The notes beneath the pieces were generated by a model. It saw only the letters and a program-made list of their open reading frames with translations. It did no database searches and had not been told where the DNA came from. Made by a program: the position numbers and the translations under genes. Shown here in pieces: positions 41,504 through 52,056 of a DNA stretch of 55,151 bases. Position 1 is the first letter of the stretch, and every line of letters begins with the position of its first letter. Source of the DNA: a virus (lineage: Duplodnaviria > Heunggongvirae > Uroviricota > Caudoviricetes); IMG/VR virus record IMGVR_UViG_3300047392_000113, positions 1 through 55,151 of that record. One strand, 5' to 3'.

Positions 41504-42700
41504 ATGGCAAACATTTCAGCACCTTCAATCACGTTAAGAGCTACCAAAGGTAGTCCTTTAACGAATACAGAAGTTGATGCTAACTTTACTAATATTAGTA
41601 ATGCATTACAAACAGGCTTAACCGCAGCTTCTTACACTGCAGCCGACGTTTTAGCTAAACTTATTACTGTCGATGGTTCTGGCTCTGGTCTGGACGCTGA
41701 CCTATTAGACGGTTATACTCAAGATACAGCTAATACCGTTAGTACTATCGTTCGACGTGACGCATCTGGTAACTTTGCAGCGAATAACATCACTGCAGCT
41801 ACGTTTACTGGTACATTTTCTGGTACAGCTGCTATCACTAGCGGTTCTATTACACTAACAACTTCCCTAGCTATTGGTTCTGGCGGTACTGGCGCAACAA
41901 CTGCGGCAGGTGCTCGTTCTACTCTAGGTTTAGTTATTGGCACTGATGTACAGGCTTATGATAAAGAACTAGCTGCTCTAGCCAGCGTAACATCTGCTGC
42001 GGATAAAGTTCCATATTTTACTGGTGACGGAACAGCTGCAGTAGCAGCATATACTGCATACGGAAGAACATTAACTGGTCTTGCTGATGCAGCTGCAGGT
42101 CGTACAGCTCTTGCGTTAGTTATCGGTACGGATGTACAAGGTTATAGCGCTAACTTAACTGCCCTTTCTGGTCTAACTGCTACAACCGACAAAGGTTTGT
42201 ATACTAGAACTGGTGCTGGTACTGCCGTAGTTCGTTCTATTGCTGGTACAACTAGTCGTATCGTAGTGACTAACGGTGATGCGGTCGCAGGAAACCCAAC
42301 TATCGATTTGGGTGCTGACGTCCCTTCACTGTCTGCTAATAATACATTCGCTGGAACTTGTACATTTAACGGTGCAACTACTACCCTAAAAGCGGTTGTA
42401 GCTGATACATTTACACAGGCTTCTGATGCTCGTTTGAAACAAAACATTCAGACAATAAATAATGCGGTAGGCGTTGTTAATGGTCTTAGAGGGGTTTCTT
42501 ACACAAGAGATGGTAAAGAAGAAATTGGTCTTATCGCTCAAGAAGTCGAACTCATTTTACCTCAAGTCGTTTCTACCACAGAAAGCGGTATGAAAGGTAT
42601 CTCATATTCTAACATGGTCGGTTTGTTAGTTGAGGCTATTAAAGAACAACAAAAGACTATTGACGAGCTAAACGCTCGACTAATTAAACTGGAGAATTAA
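41504..42700 (+). CDS. tail fibre with C-terminal intramolecular chaperone (peptidase S74-like)
   Basis: LTNTEVDANF N-terminus; ASDARLKQNI...IGLIAQEVE...LLVEAIKEQQ. Confidence 0.85.
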   Translation: MANISAPSITLRATKGSPLTNTEVDANFTNISNALQTGLTAASYTAADVLAKLITVDGSGSGLDADLLDGYTQDTANTVSTIVRRDASGNFAANNITAATFTGTFSGTAAITSGSITLTTSLAIGSGGTGATTAAGARSTLGLVIGTDVQAYDKELAALASVTSAADKVPYFTGDGTAAVAAYTAYGRTLTGLADAAAGRTALALVIGTDVQGYSANLTALSGLTATTDKGLYTRTGAGTAVVRSIAGTTSRIVVTNGDAVAGNPTIDLGADVPSLSANNTFAGTCTFNGATTTLKAVVADTFTQASDARLKQNIQTINNAVGVVNGLRGVSYTRDGKEEIGLIAQEVELILPQVVSTTESGMKGISYSNMVGLLVEAIKEQQKTIDELNARLIKLEN

Positions 42701-42702
42701 AC

Positions 42703-43077
42703 ATGGCTATTCACGGAGCAACAGGACACAGACGTGCTGATGGAACAGACGTTGTAGACTTATTTTGGAATTACTACGACGCTGGTAACAGAGGTTATAC
42801 TGAACCTAACGCTAACTGCGCTTGGAACTGTGCATGTAACGGTGCTAACTGTAACTGCGGTAACTGCGACGCTGCTGACTTGGGTTGGGGTGCTACTACT
42901 GATCGTCGTATCAACATCTTCCGTAACACTTCTATCGGTGCTGCTGTTTCTGGTTCTACTGACGGTATCCGTCACGATAACCAAGATAACACAATGGGTG
43001 GTTTCCAGTGGTATAGAACAAACTGCAACTGTAACTGCGCTTGCAACTGCAACTGTAACTGCGCTTGCAACTGCTAA
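42703..43077 (+). CDS. Asn-Cys-repeat protein (15 Cys in 124 aa), candidate radical-SAM substrate
   Basis: GGAG RBS; NCAWNCACNGANCNCGNC internally and NCNCNCACNCNCNCACNC at the C-terminus. Confidence 0.85.
   Translation: MAIHGATGHRRADGTDVVDLFWNYYDAGNRGYTEPNANCAWNCACNGANCNCGNCDAADLGWGATTDRRINIFRNTSIGAAVSGSTDGIRHDNQDNTMGGFQWYRTNCNCNCACNCNCNCACNC
43021..43074 (+). repeat. 24-nt tandem repeat encoding NCNCNCAC
   Basis: AACTGCAACTGTAACTGCGCTTGC twice, then AACTGC. Confidence 0.9.
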
Positions 43078-43090
43078 TTGAGGAAACATA

Positions 43091-44260
43091 ATGTTAAAAC
43101 TATTTAAAAGCGTAATTAGACCAAACGAAGGTGCAGAGATGTACCACCGTGATTCTAAACATAGAGTCACTATGGGTTATGATGCCGAAGCTAAAGTTAT
43201 TAAAGTTAAGGTTGAAGAAGTTAGATCTCCAAATCCAGACCTAAGTGAAGATTTGCCAGAGAATACTCCAACTATTCTTAGAGATGTTCATACTACTGCA
43301 GATTATATTTTGGTAGCTGAGCGTGGCTTCACAGAAGCAGACTTCGAATCAAAAACAGATAATAATAAATGGATTGTTGAGTATAATTCTAAGACTAAAA
43401 CAATCAGCGATCCTATTGATGTTTATGATATTGCTATACAATATATCAATGGTAGCGATTCTCATACAAAGATTTATTACAATCTAAACGAGTATCGTTA
43501 TCAGAATGATCCAACTCTAACTCCGTGTTTCGTTTTAGATAAATTTTATAAATCTCTAGGTTTCGATGGATCTACTGTACAATTCTTTGTCGAAGACTTA
43601 CAGGTTGATTTGTTAGACAGTATTCTAGAAATCCCAGCGGAACAAGTGACTGAAGTTAGTTCTAAGGAATATGAATTCTGGGTTCAGTATAATATGAGAC
43701 TGGCGATGAGTTTTGAGATTTTAGATGTTACTGGAAAGGTAGTATCATCTCCACTACAGTCAGTTTCTGATGAAGCAAAAAGCTCTACAACATATCCAAT
43801 GACATCTTTGTTTCCTAGAGATGACACTGGTATTGCAGCAGGTTTGATTGGTCCTAAGAATCTTGGTGTTGGTGCTTCTGGAACTAGATTTAAAGTTGTT
43901 TTACCTTCTTCTGAGACATACTATGTTCGAGTTAATACTAGTTCTAGAATTTGGAGATTTGTTGGAACTAATCCTCAAGCAACGTTTGATATAGAAACCA
44001 TCAACGGAGTATGTAACAAGTCTCGTATTACGTTACCTAACTATACTCCAGGGCAAACCGCTACTCCTACATTAGCCACTCAACAATTTATTGATGAACA
44101 TCCACCTGCAGAAGTTCTTACTGGACCAAATTCTAATTTAGCTGGTTCTGAAGATGTGACATTGAAATTGTATGGTCTAAAATCTGGCGATTATATTAAG
44201 ATGAAAGTTAACTGTGGTAAGTTCATTTCTTATGCAGAACTTTGGATCGAAATTCAGTAA
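43091..44260 (+). CDS. hypothetical protein (389 aa) between the Cys-rich gene and the radical SAM gene
   Basis: GAGGA RBS, long ORF; no family recognised. Confidence 0.8.
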   Translation: MLKLFKSVIRPNEGAEMYHRDSKHRVTMGYDAEAKVIKVKVEEVRSPNPDLSEDLPENTPTILRDVHTTADYILVAERGFTEADFESKTDNNKWIVEYNSKTKTISDPIDVYDIAIQYINGSDSHTKIYYNLNEYRYQNDPTLTPCFVLDKFYKSLGFDGSTVQFFVEDLQVDLLDSILEIPAEQVTEVSSKEYEFWVQYNMRLAMSFEILDVTGKVVSSPLQSVSDEAKSSTTYPMTSLFPRDDTGIAAGLIGPKNLGVGASGTRFKVVLPSSETYYVRVNTSSRIWRFVGTNPQATFDIETINGVCNKSRITLPNYTPGQTATPTLATQQFIDEHPPAEVLTGPNSNLAGSEDVTLKLYGLKSGDYIKMKVNCGKFISYAELWIEIQ

Positions 44261-44300: not shown

Positions 44301-45764
44301 ATGAGTAAATTTACGCTAGTCCTGCAAGGGGCTAATGATGTGAAAGTTAATATGGTTTATGACCCAATGACATCTGAGATGTATTGGGAACATAATCACG
44401 AAAGACCCTCGCTGGAACACGTCAGCAAGGGTCTTCAATACCAAATGAATGCAAAGGTGTGGGAGCCTGCAAATATTACAAACCCACACGACCCAGCACT
44501 CCACGGTAAGAAATCCCGCAAGCCAACTACACTTAAGATCACGATGGGTCTTAAGTGTAACTACGCATGTTCTTACTGTAACCAAGCCCACCAACCACAC
44601 GATCCAGTCGGCGGTCCAGATGACGCTGACGAATTAGTGCGCAAGATGCAAGAGAACTTCCAGTTCGGAATCTATGATAAATTTCGTCTTGAATTCTGGG
44701 GTGGGGAGCCAATGGTGTATTGGAAAACGTTGAAACCTCTTGCTGAAAAGGTCAAGAAGGTTTACCCAAATGCTCAGTTTATGATGGTTACCAACGGATC
44801 TCTATTAACAAGAGATAAGATTGATTGGTTCAATCGTATGGGGTTTTCTATCGGTATGTCTCACGACGGACCACTCCACGCACAGAATCGTGGACCAGAT
44901 CCATTAGATGAAGCACCAGCTAAAGATGCTGTTGTTTATGCTCTTAAGACTATGGGTGGTATGAGATTTACTTTTAACTGTGTATTGACTCGTGAGAACG
45001 TATCAATTCCATCAGTTAGAGAGTTTATTCTTAAGAAATTGAATAAATCTTTTACTGGGTATGAAAATCCAGGTGTAGATCAAAGAGAGATTCAAGTAAC
45101 TACAGAAGAGTTGATGCTTCCATATGATGATTCTGGTATGGCGCATTCTTTACAAACTACTGATGAGAAGAAAGAAATTCTTCACACATTGTTTGAAGAA
45201 ACTATCGACAATAAGAATCAGTTCAGCTGGACAGTATACCAAAAAGTTAAATCTTTCTACGAATCTATCGTATATGGTCGTCCAGCAGAAGCACTTGGCC
45301 AAAAGTGTGGTATGGATAAAGAAGACAACATTGCCATCGATATGAAAGGTAACGTTACCACTTGTCAGAATACTTCTTCCCTAACTAAACACAACATCGG
45401 TAATATCGAAGACTTCGATAATATCCGTCTAACTAATTCTTATCACTGGTCTACTCGTAAGGAATGTCCTTCTTGCCCAGTGGTTCAGTTGTGTCAGGGT
45501 GCTTGTTTGTTCCTAGAAGATAAACACTGGGAGCAGGCATGTGAAAACTTATTCTGGTATAATATGGCTATGCTCAGCGCTGCTCTGTTCAAAATGACCG
45601 ATGGACTGGTCTTGACTGAAATCCGTGGAGATCGTATTCGCTTCGATGGAGTTACAAGCATCCAAGTGATCGATAACGAATATATGAAAACTGGTGTAAA
45701 GTCTTGGAAAGTTCGTAAGCCTTTGAACATTCCAGTGGTGCAAGTTCCTGTGGAACCTAAATAA
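44301..45764 (+). CDS. radical SAM enzyme with SPASM domain
   Basis: CNYACSYC (CxxxCxxC, 44556-44579), FWGGEP, VTNGSLL, SHDG; C-terminal KCG...TCQ...CPSC...LCQGAC...ACEN (7 Cys). Confidence 0.95.
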   Translation: MSKFTLVLQGANDVKVNMVYDPMTSEMYWEHNHERPSLEHVSKGLQYQMNAKVWEPANITNPHDPALHGKKSRKPTTLKITMGLKCNYACSYCNQAHQPHDPVGGPDDADELVRKMQENFQFGIYDKFRLEFWGGEPMVYWKTLKPLAEKVKKVYPNAQFMMVTNGSLLTRDKIDWFNRMGFSIGMSHDGPLHAQNRGPDPLDEAPAKDAVVYALKTMGGMRFTFNCVLTRENVSIPSVREFILKKLNKSFTGYENPGVDQREIQVTTEELMLPYDDSGMAHSLQTTDEKKEILHTLFEETIDNKNQFSWTVYQKVKSFYESIVYGRPAEALGQKCGMDKEDNIAIDMKGNVTTCQNTSSLTKHNIGNIEDFDNIRLTNSYHWSTRKECPSCPVVQLCQGACLFLEDKHWEQACENLFWYNMAMLSAALFKMTDGLVLTEIRGDRIRFDGVTSIQVIDNEYMKTGVKSWKVRKPLNIPVVQVPVEPK

Positions 45765-45765
45765 A

Positions 45766-46098
45766 ATGAATGAAGCGTTTCTGGATTGTTATATCTGGGA
45801 TGTTAATAGATACCCGAGGTATGGGTCTATTACGGCGAAGCTGAATAAGAGAACTTTATCTGATGTTTTTCATCACAATTCTCTATCAGATTCCTTCCAA
45901 AATAATAACGTAAGTATACAAATTCCAGACTTTTTGTTGAATGCAACGCAGGAACAAAAAGAATTTGTTTATAAATATAAAGAGAGAATCATAAGATTAA
46001 AGCTCCCTATTATGGTCGTAGAAAAGACTGTTAATGGCGAAGAACGCTGGGGTTTAGATCTTAGATGTGCAGAACATCTTAAGTATTTAAGAAATTAA
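45766..46098 (+). CDS. hypothetical protein
   Basis: 110-aa ORF directly after the rSAM gene; CTAAATA at 45757-45763. Confidence 0.6.
   Translation: MNEAFLDCYIWDVNRYPRYGSITAKLNKRTLSDVFHHNSLSDSFQNNNVSIQIPDFLLNATQEQKEFVYKYKERIIRLKLPIMVVEKTVNGEERWGLDLRCAEHLKYLRN
45970..45977 (+). promoter_or_regulatory. T4-type late promoter for the DctP-like gene
   Basis: Perfect TATAAATA inside the upstream ORF. Confidence 0.6.
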
Positions 46099-46110: not shown

Positions 46111-47058
46111 ATGCAAAAAAAGCATGTTAAATGGGTTATCGCTCACGAGCCAATCGGTCTATTCTTGAAGGTAGCTGAATCCTTCTCTAAAGAAGTGAAC
46201 GAGCAAACTGGTGGTATGTTCGACATCGAAGTTCTATCTTTGTCTGACTACTCTGCAAAGTACAATGATGGTAAGAAAATCACTAAGAATGAACTAATGG
46301 AATTGGTTGATTCTGGTGCTATCGAAATGAGCCACATCTATACTACTTGGTTGGCTGATTACAACAAAGACCTACATGCGTTAGATCTACCATTCTTGTT
46401 CGAGAATCATGATCACGCTGACCGTGTTTTAGAAGGCGAAATCGGCACTGAGTTGCTAGCTGGCGTTTCTAAGAATAGCAATATCAAAGCTATGTCTTTC
46501 ACATACTCTGGTGGCTACCGTGTAGTTCCAGCAAACTTCCGTGCTGACACTGTTGCATCTTGGGAAGGTCAAACAGTTCGTACTTCTCGCAGCCCAGTTG
46601 CTGTTGAGACTTTCAAACTTCTTGGCGCAGTTCCAAACAAGGACATCGCTCTTGAAGAAATGAATGAAGCAGCTGACGCTGGTGTTATCGCTGCTGGTGA
46701 ATCTACATACGTTCGTATTTTCCCACTAAATCAGAACGAATCTTTCAAAGTTGTTAACGATACTGCTCACAGCTTGTTCTTGACATCTATCATTGTTAAC
46801 CAAGACTTCATGAAGCAGTTTGACGAACAAACTCAAGAAATCATGGCTACTGCTGCATTTAACGCTGCTCGTAAAGAGCGTCGTGAATCTGTTGCTAACA
46901 TCCCAGAAATCTTGGCTGAGTGTGAAGCAAAGGGTGTTGAAGTTGTTAAGATGTCTGCTGAAGAACAAAGCAAATTCAAAGCTGTTACTTCTAAAGTATA
47001 TGAGAAGTTCGCTGATTACTTCACTCCAGGTTTGGTTCAGAAGATTCAGTTACACTAA
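46111..47058 (+). CDS. TRAP transporter DctP-like solute-binding protein lacking a signal peptide
   Basis: ELVDSGAIEM, ALDLPFLFEN..HADRV, GQTVRT (conserved Arg), IIVNQDF; strong AAGGAG RBS. Confidence 0.88.
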   Translation: MQKKHVKWVIAHEPIGLFLKVAESFSKEVNEQTGGMFDIEVLSLSDYSAKYNDGKKITKNELMELVDSGAIEMSHIYTTWLADYNKDLHALDLPFLFENHDHADRVLEGEIGTELLAGVSKNSNIKAMSFTYSGGYRVVPANFRADTVASWEGQTVRTSRSPVAVETFKLLGAVPNKDIALEEMNEAADAGVIAAGESTYVRIFPLNQNESFKVVNDTAHSLFLTSIIVNQDFMKQFDEQTQEIMATAAFNAARKERRESVANIPEILAECEAKGVEVVKMSAEEQSKFKAVTSKVYEKFADYFTPGLVQKIQLH

Positions 47059-47117: not shown

Positions 47118-48221
47118 ATGAAACAACTGCTCTATTACAATATTGGTTTAATTAGATCACTAGACTTGATCAATAGTAAGCAAGAACCTATCGATGAGTA
47201 TCTTGCACCAAATCACAAAGAACTGTATGCGTTCTTTGAGAAACATAAAATGAACCTGAACGCTGTTTATGATAGAACAGGACAGACTCCCCATTTCTTA
47301 AACATCAAACCTGGTCTTTTACAGATTCCTAGTATTGATCCATCTTTCAATAAGTCTTTCAGACAGTGCGTCGAAGAAAGATGTAAAGAATTGGTTGCAC
47401 TAGATAAACCAATTACAGTTGTTTGGAGTGGTGGTATCGATAGTACGTTGGCGCTATTCGCCTTACTTCGCCATGTTAATGATCCAAGCCAGATTACTGT
47501 TTATGGCACATATAGTTCTATCTTAGAATCTGGTCCAATGTTCGATAAGAATATTAAAAACTCTGGCGTCAACTATAAGTTCAAAGTTTCTTCCACACGA
47601 GATTTTGACGATGGAGACCCAAACAGTATCTTCGTTACTGGATTTTATGGTAATCAGTTGTTTGGACCAGTAGACGATTTCATCACTGGTAAAATTAAGA
47701 CTCCAATTTCATTTTTCCACCACCAGTTTAATAACGATGATCCATTAATCGACTACACTAAGTGTATCGATGATGAACTTCACGAATTCTTACTACCTTC
47801 TATCAAGGCTAGCCCTAAGAAAATTGAGACTCTACGAGATCTCCGTTGGTGGTTAATTTTTAACTACGACTGGTATACTGCAGAATACTCTAGCCGTATC
47901 GCAACTAAACAGCAAGATAACCAGTATCACTTTTATAACACAGACGACTTCCAGCGTTATGTTATGACGACTAAAGAGCCGTTCACCAAAGACGTCGGTA
48001 AACCTCTAACTCATCGTTGGGTCATGAGAGAGTTGATTGAAGAGTATAGTGGAGACAGTTATTATGCTTGGAATAAACCAAAAGGGGTTTCCTCTCTTGG
48101 AAACCCCCTTGCTTCTTGGTTGTTTTTGCTAGATGACTATTCAGTCTACTATGCAAATAGAAACACTTTAAGTGATCATCAAGAAGTTTACTCTCACGTT
48201 GATGAGCACATGGGTTTCTGA
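47118..48221 (+). CDS. PP-loop (adenine nucleotide alpha hydrolase) protein, asparagine-synthetase C-domain-like
   Basis: VVWSGGIDST PP-loop and VTGFYGNQLFG; no glutaminase domain and no QueC Zn cysteines. Confidence 0.7.
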   Translation: MKQLLYYNIGLIRSLDLINSKQEPIDEYLAPNHKELYAFFEKHKMNLNAVYDRTGQTPHFLNIKPGLLQIPSIDPSFNKSFRQCVEERCKELVALDKPITVVWSGGIDSTLALFALLRHVNDPSQITVYGTYSSILESGPMFDKNIKNSGVNYKFKVSSTRDFDDGDPNSIFVTGFYGNQLFGPVDDFITGKIKTPISFFHHQFNNDDPLIDYTKCIDDELHEFLLPSIKASPKKIETLRDLRWWLIFNYDWYTAEYSSRIATKQQDNQYHFYNTDDFQRYVMTTKEPFTKDVGKPLTHRWVMRELIEEYSGDSYYAWNKPKGVSSLGNPLASWLFLLDDYSVYYANRNTLSDHQEVYSHVDEHMGF

Positions 48222-48827
48222 TTCTAGGTTAGTTTCAACATAACGCTGAGCATAACCTGGAGTTACATAGATTTCTCCAATGCGACTCTTAATACCAAAA
48301 CTTGTGCTAACTAGGTTTTGCGCAGCCATTTTACGAATAGCTTGAACACCACCACGTGGGTCTGGGAAATATGTCGTAGGAGAATTTTCACCACAGTTAG
48401 CGATGAAAGTAAACACTAGAGTAGAAAACTCATAGTTGTGTGGTGGGATGTGTTCGCCACCTTGTTGGAATAGAGTATTAGAACCAACAATAACTGGTGT
48501 TCTACCAGCGTCATCTTTTGAAAGCTGGATAGATTCACAGATCTCGTAAATCACTTCTTTTAAGCGATTAACTGCTGGGTGATCTAATTCCATAATATCT
48601 TTACCAGAATCTTCTTCGGCAACGTTCCATCCGTTGGAAAGATTGATAAGAGGTTGTGCTACCTGTTCCCAGTCAGTGAATTTGTAACTCGCAAAAAGAG
48701 TTGGAAATAGGTGTTGTTGGAAGGTTTCTTCAACTGGCGAATAGTCGAAATTGTATTCTTCTGTTTTAGTTTCGCCGATTAAAGGGGCAGGGATGTTCCC
48801 GTTTTGTGGTGGATTGGTATTTTCCAT
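48168..48827 (-). CDS. 2OG-Fe(II) oxygenase-fold protein (TIGR02466-like), degenerate active site
   Basis: HIPPHNY, TYFPDPRG, GEIYVTPGY..RYVETN; start moved to ATG 48827 after GGAG. Confidence 0.7.
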   Translation of the reverse strand: MENTNPPQNGNIPAPLIGETKTEEYNFDYSPVEETFQQHLFPTLFASYKFTDWEQVAQPLINLSNGWNVAEEDSGKDIMELDHPAVNRLKEVIYEICESIQLSKDDAGRTPVIVGSNTLFQQGGEHIPPHNYEFSTLVFTFIANCGENSPTTYFPDPRGGVQAIRKMAAQNLVSTSFGIKSRIGEIYVTPGYAQRYVETNLESETHVLINVRVNFLMIT

Positions 48828-48873
48828 ATTATCTCCATGAAATTGATTTATATATCGCTTCGCAGCTAAGAAG

Positions 48874-48925
48874 TATTTATACGCCATCTATTTCAGGAAA
48901 TCGCAAATCCCTTCGTTTATAAATA
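48874..48925. promoter_or_regulatory. back-to-back T4-type late promoters
   Basis: TATAAATA on - (48874-48881) and on + (48918-48925). Confidence 0.8.
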
Positions 48926-49557: not shown

Positions 49558-52056
49558 ATGGCTTCTATTATTAGAATTAAACGTTCTAGCACATCTGGCA
49601 ACCCAAGTACGCTTGGCGCTGGTGAGTTAGCTTATTCAGCATTAGCAGATAACGGCGCTAACGGTGGTGATCGCTTATACATTGGTATGGGCACAGAAAC
49701 TGCAGGTAATGCGGTTAACCACGTTATCATCGGTGGTAAATACTACACTGGTCTAGTCGACGCAGGTGGTGCAGGTGGTACACTTAACACTACTGCTAAG
49801 TCTGTCCCAGTCCTTTCTGCTACAGGTACAATCGATAAATGGTTGGTTGGTAACCTACAACTTACAAGTAGCACCCTTTCTTCTACCAATACCAACGGTG
49901 ATATTAACATCACTCCAAACGGTACTGGTAAGTTAATCCTTAGCAATACATACATCGGTGATAGTGCTACTTCTCTTGCAGAGTATATCTACGATACAGT
50001 TGGTGGTGCAGTAACTGGCACTTCAGGGCAAATTGTTGTTACCAACTCTGATGCTGGTAATACATCTACAATTTCTTTAGCGACTACTGCAGTTACTGCA
50101 GGTTCTTATGGTTCTGCGACTTCTATTCCAACATTCACTGTTGATTCTTATGGTCGTTTAACTGCTGCTGGTTCTGCTTCTCTTGCTACTACTTTAAACA
50201 TTGCTGGTGATACTGGAACTTCAGCGTTTGCTCTGTTGACAGACACCATGACTTTTGTTGGTGGCACTGGTATTGATTCCATTGTCAATAAAGTTGGTGC
50301 AGCAACCAGTGTAACATTTAACATTGATTCAACTGTTGCCACTTTAGCTGGCACACAGACATTAACTAACAAGACTATTAACTTAGGAAGCAACACTCTA
50401 GTTGCTACTTCTGCTCAGTTGGCTGCAGCTGTAACAGATGAAACAGGTTCTGGTTCTCTAGTTTTCGCTACTAGTCCAACTCTTGTAACTCCTATCCTTG
50501 GTGTTGCTTCTGCAACATCTATCAACAAGGTTGCGATTACTGCTCCAGCTACTGGTTCTACATTAACCATCGCTGACGGTAAGACTCTAACTGCAAGCAA
50601 CACTTTAACATTCACTGGTACTGATACTTCTTCAGTAGCATTTGGTGCTGGTGGTACTGTTGCTTATGTAGCAAATAAATTAAACGCATTTGCAACCACT
50701 ACTTCTGCTGAATTATTAAGCATTATTTCTGACGAGACTGGTTCTGGTTCTCTAGTATTTGCTACTAGCCCAACATTGGTAACACCAACTCTTGGCGCAG
50801 CACTTGCTACTAGCATTACTGCCACTTCTGGTAGTCTAGCTCTTAATGCTGCAGCTGGTAATAACAGTGTTAACTTAGTGCCAACTGGTACTGGTACTGT
50901 TGACGTTGCCAACAAACGTATTACTTCTGTTGCTGAACCTACTCAGTCTACTGATGCTGCAACTAAGAACTATGTTGATGCAGTTAAGACTGGTTTGGAT
51001 CCTAAAGATTCAGTTCGCATCGCTACTACTGGTGCACTAACTGTCACGTATAACAACGGTACTTCTGGTGTTGGTGCTACTTTAACTAATGCTGGCACTC
51101 AAGCTGCATTCACTGTTGACTCTATCGTTGGTGTTGTTGGCGATCGTGTTCTTGTTAAAGATCAAGCGTCTGCTCTACAAAACGGTATCTATACTATCAC
51201 CACTGTTGGTACTGCTTCTACAAACTGGGTATTGACACGTTCTATTGATGCTGACCAAAACCCAGAAGTAACTCCTGGAGCATTCACTTTCGTTGAAGAA
51301 GGTACAGTTAACGGTAGCAACGGTTTCGTCTGCACATCAACTGGCACTATCACAATTGGTACTAGCAACATTAACTGGGTTCAGTTCTCTGGTGCTGGAC
51401 AGATTATCGCTGGTGATGGTTTAACTAAGACTGGCAATACATTAAATGCAGTTGGTACTGCAAACCGCATTTCTATCTCTGCGGATGCTATTGATATTGC
51501 TGCCACTTATGTTGGTCAGACTTCTATCACAACTCTTGGTACTATTGGTACTGGTACTTGGCAAGGCACGGTTATTGCTGGCCAATATGGTGGTACTGGT
51601 GTAAACAACGCTGGTAAGACTATTACTCTTGGTGGTAACCTTGTCACTTCTGGTGCGTTCTCTACTACTTTAACTGCAACTGCCAATACAACACTAACAC
51701 TACCTGTAACTGGTACTCTTGCTACTTTAGCTGGTGCAGAAACATTAACAAACAAGACGTTAACTGCTCCAGTTATCGCTACTATTGTTAATACTGGTAC
51801 TTTAACTCTACCAACTTCTACTGACACATTGGTTGGTCGTGCCACTACTGATACATTGACAAACAAGACATTGTCTGGTGCTGTTATCTCTGGCGGTTCT
51901 ATTAACAATACCCCAATCGGTGCAACTACTGCTTCGACTGGTGCATTTACAACACTAAGCGCAAGCGGTACTATTACTGCTTCTGGTAACATTACTGGTG
52001 CAGGCGCTGCAACTTCTACTCTTGATGGATTCAACATCGATGGCGGAACGTACTAA
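49558..52056 (+). CDS. tail fibre protein
   Basis: IIRIKRSS..GELAYS N-terminus; Thr/Gly/Ala-rich repeats (TDETGSGSLVFATSPTLVTP twice); IDGGTY C-terminus. Confidence 0.8.
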   Translation: MASIIRIKRSSTSGNPSTLGAGELAYSALADNGANGGDRLYIGMGTETAGNAVNHVIIGGKYYTGLVDAGGAGGTLNTTAKSVPVLSATGTIDKWLVGNLQLTSSTLSSTNTNGDINITPNGTGKLILSNTYIGDSATSLAEYIYDTVGGAVTGTSGQIVVTNSDAGNTSTISLATTAVTAGSYGSATSIPTFTVDSYGRLTAAGSASLATTLNIAGDTGTSAFALLTDTMTFVGGTGIDSIVNKVGAATSVTFNIDSTVATLAGTQTLTNKTINLGSNTLVATSAQLAAAVTDETGSGSLVFATSPTLVTPILGVASATSINKVAITAPATGSTLTIADGKTLTASNTLTFTGTDTSSVAFGAGGTVAYVANKLNAFATTTSAELLSIISDETGSGSLVFATSPTLVTPTLGAALATSITATSGSLALNAAAGNNSVNLVPTGTGTVDVANKRITSVAEPTQSTDAATKNYVDAVKTGLDPKDSVRIATTGALTVTYNNGTSGVGATLTNAGTQAAFTVDSIVGVVGDRVLVKDQASALQNGIYTITTVGTASTNWVLTRSIDADQNPEVTPGAFTFVEEGTVNGSNGFVCTSTGTITIGTSNINWVQFSGAGQIIAGDGLTKTGNTLNAVGTANRISISADAIDIAATYVGQTSITTLGTIGTGTWQGTVIAGQYGGTGVNNAGKTITLGGNLVTSGAFSTTLTATANTTLTLPVTGTLATLAGAETLTNKTLTAPVIATIVNTGTLTLPTSTDTLVGRATTDTLTNKTLSGAVISGGSINNTPIGATTASTGAFTTLSASGTITASGNITGAGAATSTLDGFNIDGGTY

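Follow-up and report, generated by a model that had tools for sequence, protein, structure and literature searches.

An Asn-Cys repeat protein of a T4-like aquatic myovirus as a candidate substrate of a radical SAM/SPASM enzyme at the tail-fibre tip

Radical SAM enzymes that cross-link Cys residues are known from small antibiotic-like peptides and from very few proteins. Here, we find the same enzyme type tied to the end of the receptor-binding fibre in many unrelated phages and prophages, including the cultured Achromobacter phage JWF and Ralstonia phage RSP15 and prophage-like loci in isolates of Limnohabitans and Rhodoplanes. The starting point was a stretch of 55,151 nucleotides, referred to as the window, that represents IMG/VR record IMGVR_UViG_3300047392_000113 and belongs to a T4-like aquatic myovirus. 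It encodes a protein of 124 amino acids that ends in a run of Asn-Cys (NC) pairs. Taken as a whole, the data make it probable that this is a fibre-tip protein, the NC tail of which is matured by the phage's own radical SAM enzyme through thioethers, and that the genes form a three-part cassette. The parts of this reading differ in strength. That the NC tail is a substrate of the enzyme is well supported and likely to be correct, and Cys-to-Asn thioethers are put forward as a tentative assignment of the chemistry. We also suggest, with some reservation, that a radical SAM/SPASM enzyme and an Ig-like companion protein may install non-reducible cross-links, perhaps between chains, in the NC tails of fibre tips in many lineages, as a portable module with a repeat that can be tuned by slippage.

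The Asn-Cys repeat gene and the tail fibre

The genes and segments of the window that are discussed below are:

41504..42700, + strand: tail fibre of 398 aa, the C-terminus of which is a self-cleaving intramolecular chaperone of the Peptidase_S74 type (PF13884, E 7e-13)
42703..43077, + strand: Asn-Cys repeat protein of 124 aa, as translated; proposed fibre-tip protein and radical SAM substrate
42808..42867, + strand: internal Cys/Asn cluster of this protein, residues 36-55, with six Cys; near-invariant columns in the clade alignment
43021..43074, + strand: C-terminal (N/A)C x 9 tail of the same protein, a 24-nt tandem repeat; proposed core modification site
43091..44260, + strand: companion protein of 389 aa, 'P3-like' by model and profile links; candidate substrate-docking accessory or structural partner
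44301..45764, + strand: radical SAM/SPASM enzyme of 487 aa from an unnamed subfamily (PF04055, TIGR04085); proposed maturase of the NC tail
45766..46098, + strand: ORF of 110 aa directly after the enzyme gene; uncertain member of the cassette

The ORF at 42703-43077 is a real gene. It is intact in nine protein relatives and in 14 of 15 close viral loci, the fifteenth of which is cut upstream. The ATG at position 42703 has a GGAG motif 8 nt on its 5' side, and the gap to the stop codon of the S74 fibre gene, which ends at 42700, is 2 nt, as given in the preliminary description. The translation also bears out the two Cys clusters, mostly of NC pairs, that were described there: residues 39-55 contain six of the 15 Cys and residues 108-124 the other nine, with Asn as the preceding residue at 12 sites and Ala at three. 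The protein terminates in NCNCNCACNCNCNCACNC followed by the stop codon. The tail was thought to be encoded by a 24-nt tandem duplication, and Tandem Repeats Finder identifies a repeat at 43021-43074 with a period of 24, 2.2 copies and 100% matches. The comparison of repeat numbers among homologs that had been called for showed that the tails differ in length, from 6 to 11 xC units. The internal Cys cluster is partly coded by short tandem repeats with periods of 15 and 9 nt (42835-42868), and slippage may have been the route by which both Cys regions grew.

Both clusters are invariant or nearly so in alignments of the homologs. The invariant columns of the internal cluster in the clade alignment are N36, N38, C39, W41, C43, A44, C45, N46, N49, C50, C52, G53, N54 and C55. 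This cluster (42808..42867) is a possible second modification site or a possible metal site. The protein has no match in Pfam, PHROG or NCBIfam, and its AlphaFold model is of low confidence (pLDDT 41). Neither a Megablast search with the region nor a tblastn search with the 124-aa protein gave a match among isolated phages, the latter probably because the repeat is masked by the low-complexity filter. The tail contains the NxxC motif as defined for the NxxcB system (PMC9389541), in that NCNC corresponds to overlapping N-x-x-C units. The CxC spacing is also present, together with several Trp, Tyr and Phe residues, and there is no match to a metallothionein in Pfam or NCBIfam.

The fibre encoded immediately upstream (41504..42700) matches many PHROG tail-fibre families. 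Its residues 1-279 are 66% identical to a fibre of 391 aa at the viral locus L070, which has no S74 domain and ends with RAHNCNCNCNC and a stop codon. This identity suggests that the same shaft can end either in an NC tail or in a self-removing chaperone that is followed by a separate NC protein. The C-terminal domain of the L070 fibre gave no BLASTP match to the 124-aa protein, and longer, fused homologs of the complete protein were sought without success; it is the NC tail alone, not the body of the protein, that is common to the existing fibre fusions. The fusions, and above all the one at L070, assign the NC run to the distal fibre tip. The adhesin gp38 of phages T2 and S16 is a small protein that caps the tip of gp37, and it is encoded after the long-fibre gene, which has a cleaved C-terminal chaperone. 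Since the end of the window fibre is removed by the S74 chaperone, a separate small protein would cap this fibre in much the way that gp38 caps gp37. Gene order and the fusions in other phages thus point to the 124-aa protein as a putative virion component that may dock on the cleaved fibre.

Fusions to fibre C-termini had been proposed as something to look for, and they turned out to be present in many lineages. According to PHROG matches, NC tails are carried by tail fibres from several N-terminal families that are unrelated to one another; these include collagen-like fibres. One collagen-like fibre with a Gly-Pro-Gln repeat ends with NCNCACDCGNN and adjoins the companion and enzyme genes (L186:2321-2785). 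Other carriers are small proteins of 68-140 aa directly after an S74-chaperoned fibre, a layout that was seen in at least four lineages (the window clade, L024/L025, L028 and L153). The fibre gp028 of phage JWF contains NCNCDCNCNCSC. A Hom_end Hint domain starts with the final Cys of this NC run as its residue 1, so that self-cleavage would leave the run at the C-terminus. At another locus, L049:44-934 (- strand), which is the only one with an internal NC run and an enzyme among the matches listed, about 170 residues without a Pfam match follow the run, and these may represent another self-removing C-terminal domain like the Hint domain of JWF. The side fibre of phage RSP15 ends with NTNCQCGN. 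The tails of some cassette members, such as RSP15 and L155, contain one or two Cys only, which argues that a ladder of cross-links is not essential.

Variant tails were observed beside the same enzyme family. One consists of a (Ser-Tyr-Cys)n run followed by NCNCDC and another of a (Tyr-Asn-Cys)n run in a protein of 143 aa with 23 Cys, located after an S74 fibre (among L178, L180, L181 and L153:3578-4009), and thus the repeat is not strictly alternating in every case. Two further classes of small proteins carry NCNCNCNC near the C-terminal end (L042, L050, L094, L110 and L136; L065, L106, L133 and L149), one of which has an HTH.F.DDY motif before the run and the other a QxC-rich body. A more distant radical SAM gene, with 23-27% identity to the window enzyme, is found at six of these nine loci, and none was seen at L065, L110 and L136.

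Co-occurrence of the tail with the enzyme and the companion

The NC gene is located two genes upstream of the radical SAM/SPASM gene, and the gene order in 15 close viral contigs, and likewise in three look-ups by protein identity, is a DUF4815 giant, a small virion protein, the S74 fibre, the NC protein, the companion, the enzyme and a small ORF. Close relatives share descent, and their synteny alone therefore proves little. The association was studied in three independent samplings, namely distant viral relatives of the enzyme, a blind scan for a DNA pattern, and bacterial genomes. The preliminary description viewed the NC repeat as the target of the neighbouring radical SAM enzyme, and the sequence data strongly support this link through the co-occurrence of tail and enzyme in very distant phages and prophages. 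A tblastn search with the enzyme against isolated phages identified relatives with 32-37% identity in Ralstonia phage RSP15 and in Achromobacter phages JWF and 2-1, and in the two that were inspected, RSP15 and JWF, the relative adjoins the tail-fibre genes. In ten distant viral contigs with an enzyme of 33-38% identity, an upstream ORF on the same strand with a terminal NC or xC run is present wherever the upstream DNA suffices, and the same holds for RSP15 and JWF.

The blind scan of IMG/VR for DNA that encodes NCNCNCNC yielded at least 120 loci. We defined an NC-tail locus as one with no more than 12 aa between the run and the stop codon of an ORF that encodes 60 aa or more, which gave 70 such loci among the matches listed, with 48 non-redundant tails. 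A strong relative of the enzyme (E < 1e-30) was present at 47 of these 70 loci, in each case 22-5329 nt downstream of the run and in the same orientation, and a weak or more distant radical SAM match was found at eight more. All but one of the 15 NC-tail loci without the enzyme have less than 3 kb of downstream DNA. The 50 other occurrences among the matches listed represent short spurious ORFs, internal runs and low-complexity DNA of giant viruses, and the enzyme was found at one of these (47/70 versus 1/50; Fisher p = 1e-14, odds ratio 100, for loci that are partly redundant and some of which are incomplete). Asn precedes 270 of the 327 Cys (83%) in the tails among the matches listed, and Asp is the next most frequent residue.

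For the bacterial sampling, an alignment of 29 diverse enzyme representatives was compared with one genome per bacterial species. A total of 222 relatives were identified, mostly in Alpha- and Betaproteobacteria, with isolates of Limnohabitans and Rhodoplanes tepidamans DSM 9987 among the carriers; a scan of the bacterial genomes with a single enzyme sequence found no relative. Eighty bacterial loci were found via the enzyme, and at least 2.5 kb of upstream sequence was available for 60. An upstream ORF of at least 100 aa on the same strand, with at least three xC units in its last 25 residues, was present in 49 of these 60 loci, as compared to an xC tail in 2 of 2113 control ORFs on the opposite strand or downstream. 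Neither the viral nor the bacterial samplings showed homologs that commonly occur without any radical SAM gene, which had been named as the observation that would speak against the proposal. The anatomy of the genes, the co-occurrence across lineages, the order on the same strand and the C-terminal position of the tail are shown by the sequence data. The co-occurrence fits equally well with a situation in which the enzyme acts on the companion protein and the NC tail is a partner.

The companion in the window (43091..44260) has no family match. Its AlphaFold model is confident (pLDDT 81) and suggests that the C-terminal half is an Ig-like sandwich (VIA-align Z 6-7) and that the N-terminal half is weakly similar to SPP1 gp22 (Z 6.3); apart from this weak SPP1 gp22 match, VIA-align and Atlas returned generic sandwiches of the Ig-like type. 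A Foldseek search against viral models identified uncharacterised phage proteins of 250-315 aa with E-values down to 1e-13, the top match of which is as long as RSP15 ORF047 and may correspond to it, and a search against PDB gave no match at E <= 0.001. Pairwise BLASTP of the companion against its JWF and RSP15 counterparts gave no match, and the link to these is seen by profile and structure methods only. An hhalign comparison of the window-clade companions with the distant family gave an E-value of 3.8e-4. Moreover, an HMM of 43 distant members, none from the window clade, matches the C-terminal domain of the window-clade homologs with E-values of 2.6e-6 to 7e-4, and the window's own companion sequence was not matched by this HMM. 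A similar C-terminal motif is found in the gene after the NC gene across lineages, and JWF gp029 is without it. Members of the companion family were identified at 47 of the 70 NC-tail loci and at none of the 50 others, among the matches listed, and for about 30 of 50 same-strand family hits, also among the matches listed, the companion starts no more than about 30 nt from the stop of the NC gene. The predicted complex of the companion and the NC protein obtained a score of 0.00 ('no answer'), which is neutral with respect to binding. Sequence profiles and models thus suggest that the gene next to the NC gene is usually a member of this family and the third conserved part of the cassette.

The window contains each of these parts, an xC C-terminus, a P3-like companion and a downstream enzyme on the same strand. 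In the close viral contigs, the protein at the companion position has a length of 309-389 aa. The 110-aa ORF after the enzyme gene (45766..46098) has no family match in Pfam, PHROG or NCBIfam; small genes for 103-114 aa are found at the same place in L003-L006, and none was called in L007. Several cassettes have added genes for 2OG-Fe(II) oxygenases (PF13759, PF13640) or additional radical SAM genes. At L024:3372-4013 and L029:8063-9854, the companion gene is separated from the radical SAM gene by one to three genes for such oxygenases, and side-chain hydroxylation may take place alongside the Cys chemistry in such cassettes. A second radical SAM gene is present in some cassettes (L032:1672-2694; L154:877-5608), and one contig has three radical SAM genes in tandem, one of which encodes 800 aa.

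Downstream of the enzyme gene, the window encodes a DctP-type solute-binding protein (46111-47058, Pfam E 6e-43) and a protein with a weak match to asparagine synthase/PP-loop proteins (47118-48221). Both positions are retained in L003-L005 and L007, and since the DctP gene is absent from L006 and the distant cassettes, these two genes are probably not part of the core. The antisense ORF at 48168-48887 has no Pfam family. Further downstream, parts of a fibre-like protein of 832 aa (49558-52056) are 48-58% identical to the tail fibres of Methylophilales phage Melnitz, Limnohabitans phage DC31 and Pelagibacter phage Mosig, and this sequence likeness hints at the group to which the phage belongs and at a possible freshwater or marine host.

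The enzyme and the proposed maturation of the tail

The enzyme (44301..45764) matches Radical_SAM (PF04055) with 39 bits versus a cut-off of 29.5, SPASM (TIGR04085) with 37.3 bits versus a cut-off of 27, and phrog_1802 with an E-value of 1e-62. The subfamily has 248 representatives at E <= 1e-30 in a library clustered at 50% identity. The SAM-cluster motif CxxxCxxC is CNYACSYC at residues 86-93 and is invariant in 29 diverse members, as are the SPASM residues C336, C355, C389, C392, C398 and C414, while C402 is nearly so. When aligned to PDB entries, the enzyme has its SPASM Cys at the positions of those in the thioether synthase CteB (5wgg), and the alignment to 4k37 shows that the extra ligand Cys after the CGM motif of anSME is absent. 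Seven SPASM Cys without the extra Cys represent what we take to be the pattern of enzymes, such as CteB, that bind a substrate Cys on auxiliary cluster I.

In NCBIfam, every named family among the best 25 of 48 matches falls far below its cut-off. The first of the named matches is the PapB ranthipeptide maturase (NF047865, 73.9 bits versus 340), and it is accompanied by DynA (66.8 versus 450), the Geopeptide maturase (64.3 versus 400), anSME (TIGR03942, 61 versus 349), CcpM (59.4 versus 500) and QhpD (TIGR03906, 55.5 versus 453). The reaction can therefore not be read from homology. The best named matches, weak as they are, are peptide cross-linkers among the matches listed. An identity as anSME was rejected, as the score is below the TIGR03942 cut-off, the extra Cys is absent and the NC protein contains no C/S-x-P/A-x-R motif.

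The mechanism that we propose is as follows. The 124-aa product would be a small virion protein at the tip of the tail fibre, and its C-terminal (Asn-Cys)n tail, perhaps along with the internal Cys cluster, would be modified by the radical SAM/SPASM enzyme that the phage itself encodes. The genes would belong to a mobile three-part cassette that consists of an NC-run protein, an Ig-like companion of 240-390 aa and a same-strand radical SAM/SPASM enzyme. The fibre itself ends with the NC run in many phages, and in JWF the run directly precedes the self-cleaving Hint domain. Late in infection, the enzyme would bind a tail Cys on its open auxiliary cluster and abstract a hydrogen from a side-chain carbon of the neighbouring Asn (or Asp), with a non-reducible Cys-to-Asn thioether as the product, and NCNC would be read as overlapping NxxC units. 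The outcome would be a rigid fibre tip that resists proteases and redox changes. The Cys-to-Asn thioether is a best guess from the CteB-like, seven-Cys SPASM domain and the bias for Asn or Asp before Cys in the sequences. The spacing of adjacent Asn and Cys is tighter here than in every characterised thioether motif, which counts against this reading.

It is conceivable, although we find it unlikely, that the radical SAM enzyme modifies the NC tail by another reaction, such as the formation of alpha-carbon thioethers (sactionines), D-epimerisation, formylglycine oxidation or inter-chain links in a trimer. The enzyme is below all named cut-offs, and its weak matches include DynA, anSME, cyclophane formers and sactisynthases among the matches listed, which is compatible with such reactions, as is the occurrence of single-Cys tails. 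The strict alternation of the repeat would suit a chemistry at every second residue. PoyD and YydG are epimerases that convert alternate residues to D-amino acids, and a similar reaction here would turn the alternating repeat into a beta-helix-like rod; however, no epimerase family is among the NCBIfam matches listed. As for formylglycine, the SPASM domain is without the extra Cys of anSME and the tails are without a sulfatase motif of the CxPxR type. More generally, the invariant Cys and the Asn/Asp bias best suit the roles of donor and acceptor in a ranthionine.

A metallothionein-like or Fe-S metal-binding tip was the alternative named in the preliminary description, and we consider it quite improbable that the NC runs are metal or Fe-S sites without any covalent change, with another target or an assembly role for the enzyme. 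T4 gp37 has His-x-His iron sites, metallothioneins have CxC motifs, and trimeric fibre tips such as those of T4 gp37 and gp12 hold metal ions. The CxCxC spacing is typical of thiolate metal sites, and a role for metals has also been discussed for the Cys-rich protein CrpA (PMC13692751). A metal site would nevertheless leave unexplained both the tight tie of the tail to one enzyme family and one gene order and the fact that the spacer is Asn in 83% among the matches listed rather than variable, and the protein matches no metallothionein or other family in Pfam and NCBIfam. The metal-binding alternative is thus weakened by the tie between tail and enzyme and by the Asn bias, and retains a small share of the probability. 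A reading of the 124-aa protein as a RiPP-like product that is released, for example a toxin, a signal or a factor in superinfection, rather than as a part of the virion, is very improbable. Its size, its richness in Cys and the adjacent SPASM gene do resemble precursors of Cys-rich natural products, and maturases of such products are among the weak NCBIfam matches of the enzyme, but the protein has no leader or signal peptide, there is no gene for a protease or exporter nearby, the gene is located 2 nt after the fibre gene within the late structural block, and the same tail is the terminus of bona fide fibres in many phages.

Comparison with known systems

We found no paper on radical SAM enzymes, phage fibres and Cys repeats together, nor on a virion maturation of this kind; radical SAM genes are mentioned only in passing in papers on pelagimyophages and cyanophages. 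If the proposal is correct, it would add a new class of post-translational maturation of virions, explain the orphan radical SAM genes in genomes of aquatic myophages, and offer RiPP enzymology a great many natural protein substrates that carry a simple repeat of two residues. The heterologous production or engineering of such fibres might then need the enzyme for folding or function.

Like the NC protein, gp38 of T2 and S16 is encoded right after the fibre gene and contains short repeats. It uses glycine-rich motifs, however, and needs no modifying enzyme, and there is no sequence similarity between the two, as the NC protein does not match the GP38 family in Pfam. The CXXX-repeat system (TIGR04114/TIGR04115) also combines a Cys repeat with a dedicated radical SAM maturase. 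However, Cys recurs there at every fourth residue instead of every second, and the enzyme belongs to a different family, TIGR04115 not being among the best 25 of the 48 NCBIfam matches.

The pairs PapB/freyrasin, CteB/SCIFF and NxxcB/NxxC resemble the system described here in that a seven-Cys SPASM enzyme is encoded beside a substrate with a C-terminal Cys core. They differ in that their substrates are short exported peptides, as compared to a fibre or fibre-tip protein of the virion. Furthermore, no leader or RRE logic was detected here, and Cys is found at every second residue. NxxcB links Cys to the beta-carbon of Asn and tolerates Asp, Ala and Gln (PMC9389541), and QhpD and PapB use Asp and Glu as thioether acceptors, as cited in a second study (PMC13692751); the beta-carbons of Asn and Asp are both known to accept ranthionine links. 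The NxxcA precursor is short, bears a leader and belongs to a streptococcal quorum-sensing operon, in contrast to the structural operon of a phage.

The most recent precedent, from 2026, is CrpC, a SPASM enzyme that installs ranthionines on the 29-kDa Cys-rich protein CrpA (PMC13692751). Both QhpD/QhpC and CrpC/CrpA are similar to the proposed phage system in that a SPASM enzyme modifies a large or folded Cys-rich protein encoded nearby (PMC13692751). These enzymes act on a dehydrogenase subunit and on an archaeal protein, respectively, and neither system has a known phage or fibre context. The system described here would work like the maturation of ranthipeptides or like that by QhpD or CrpC, yet it falls outside each of the named families. 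What appears to be new is that a known enzyme logic would be directed to a new and widespread target, the tip of the receptor-binding fibre.
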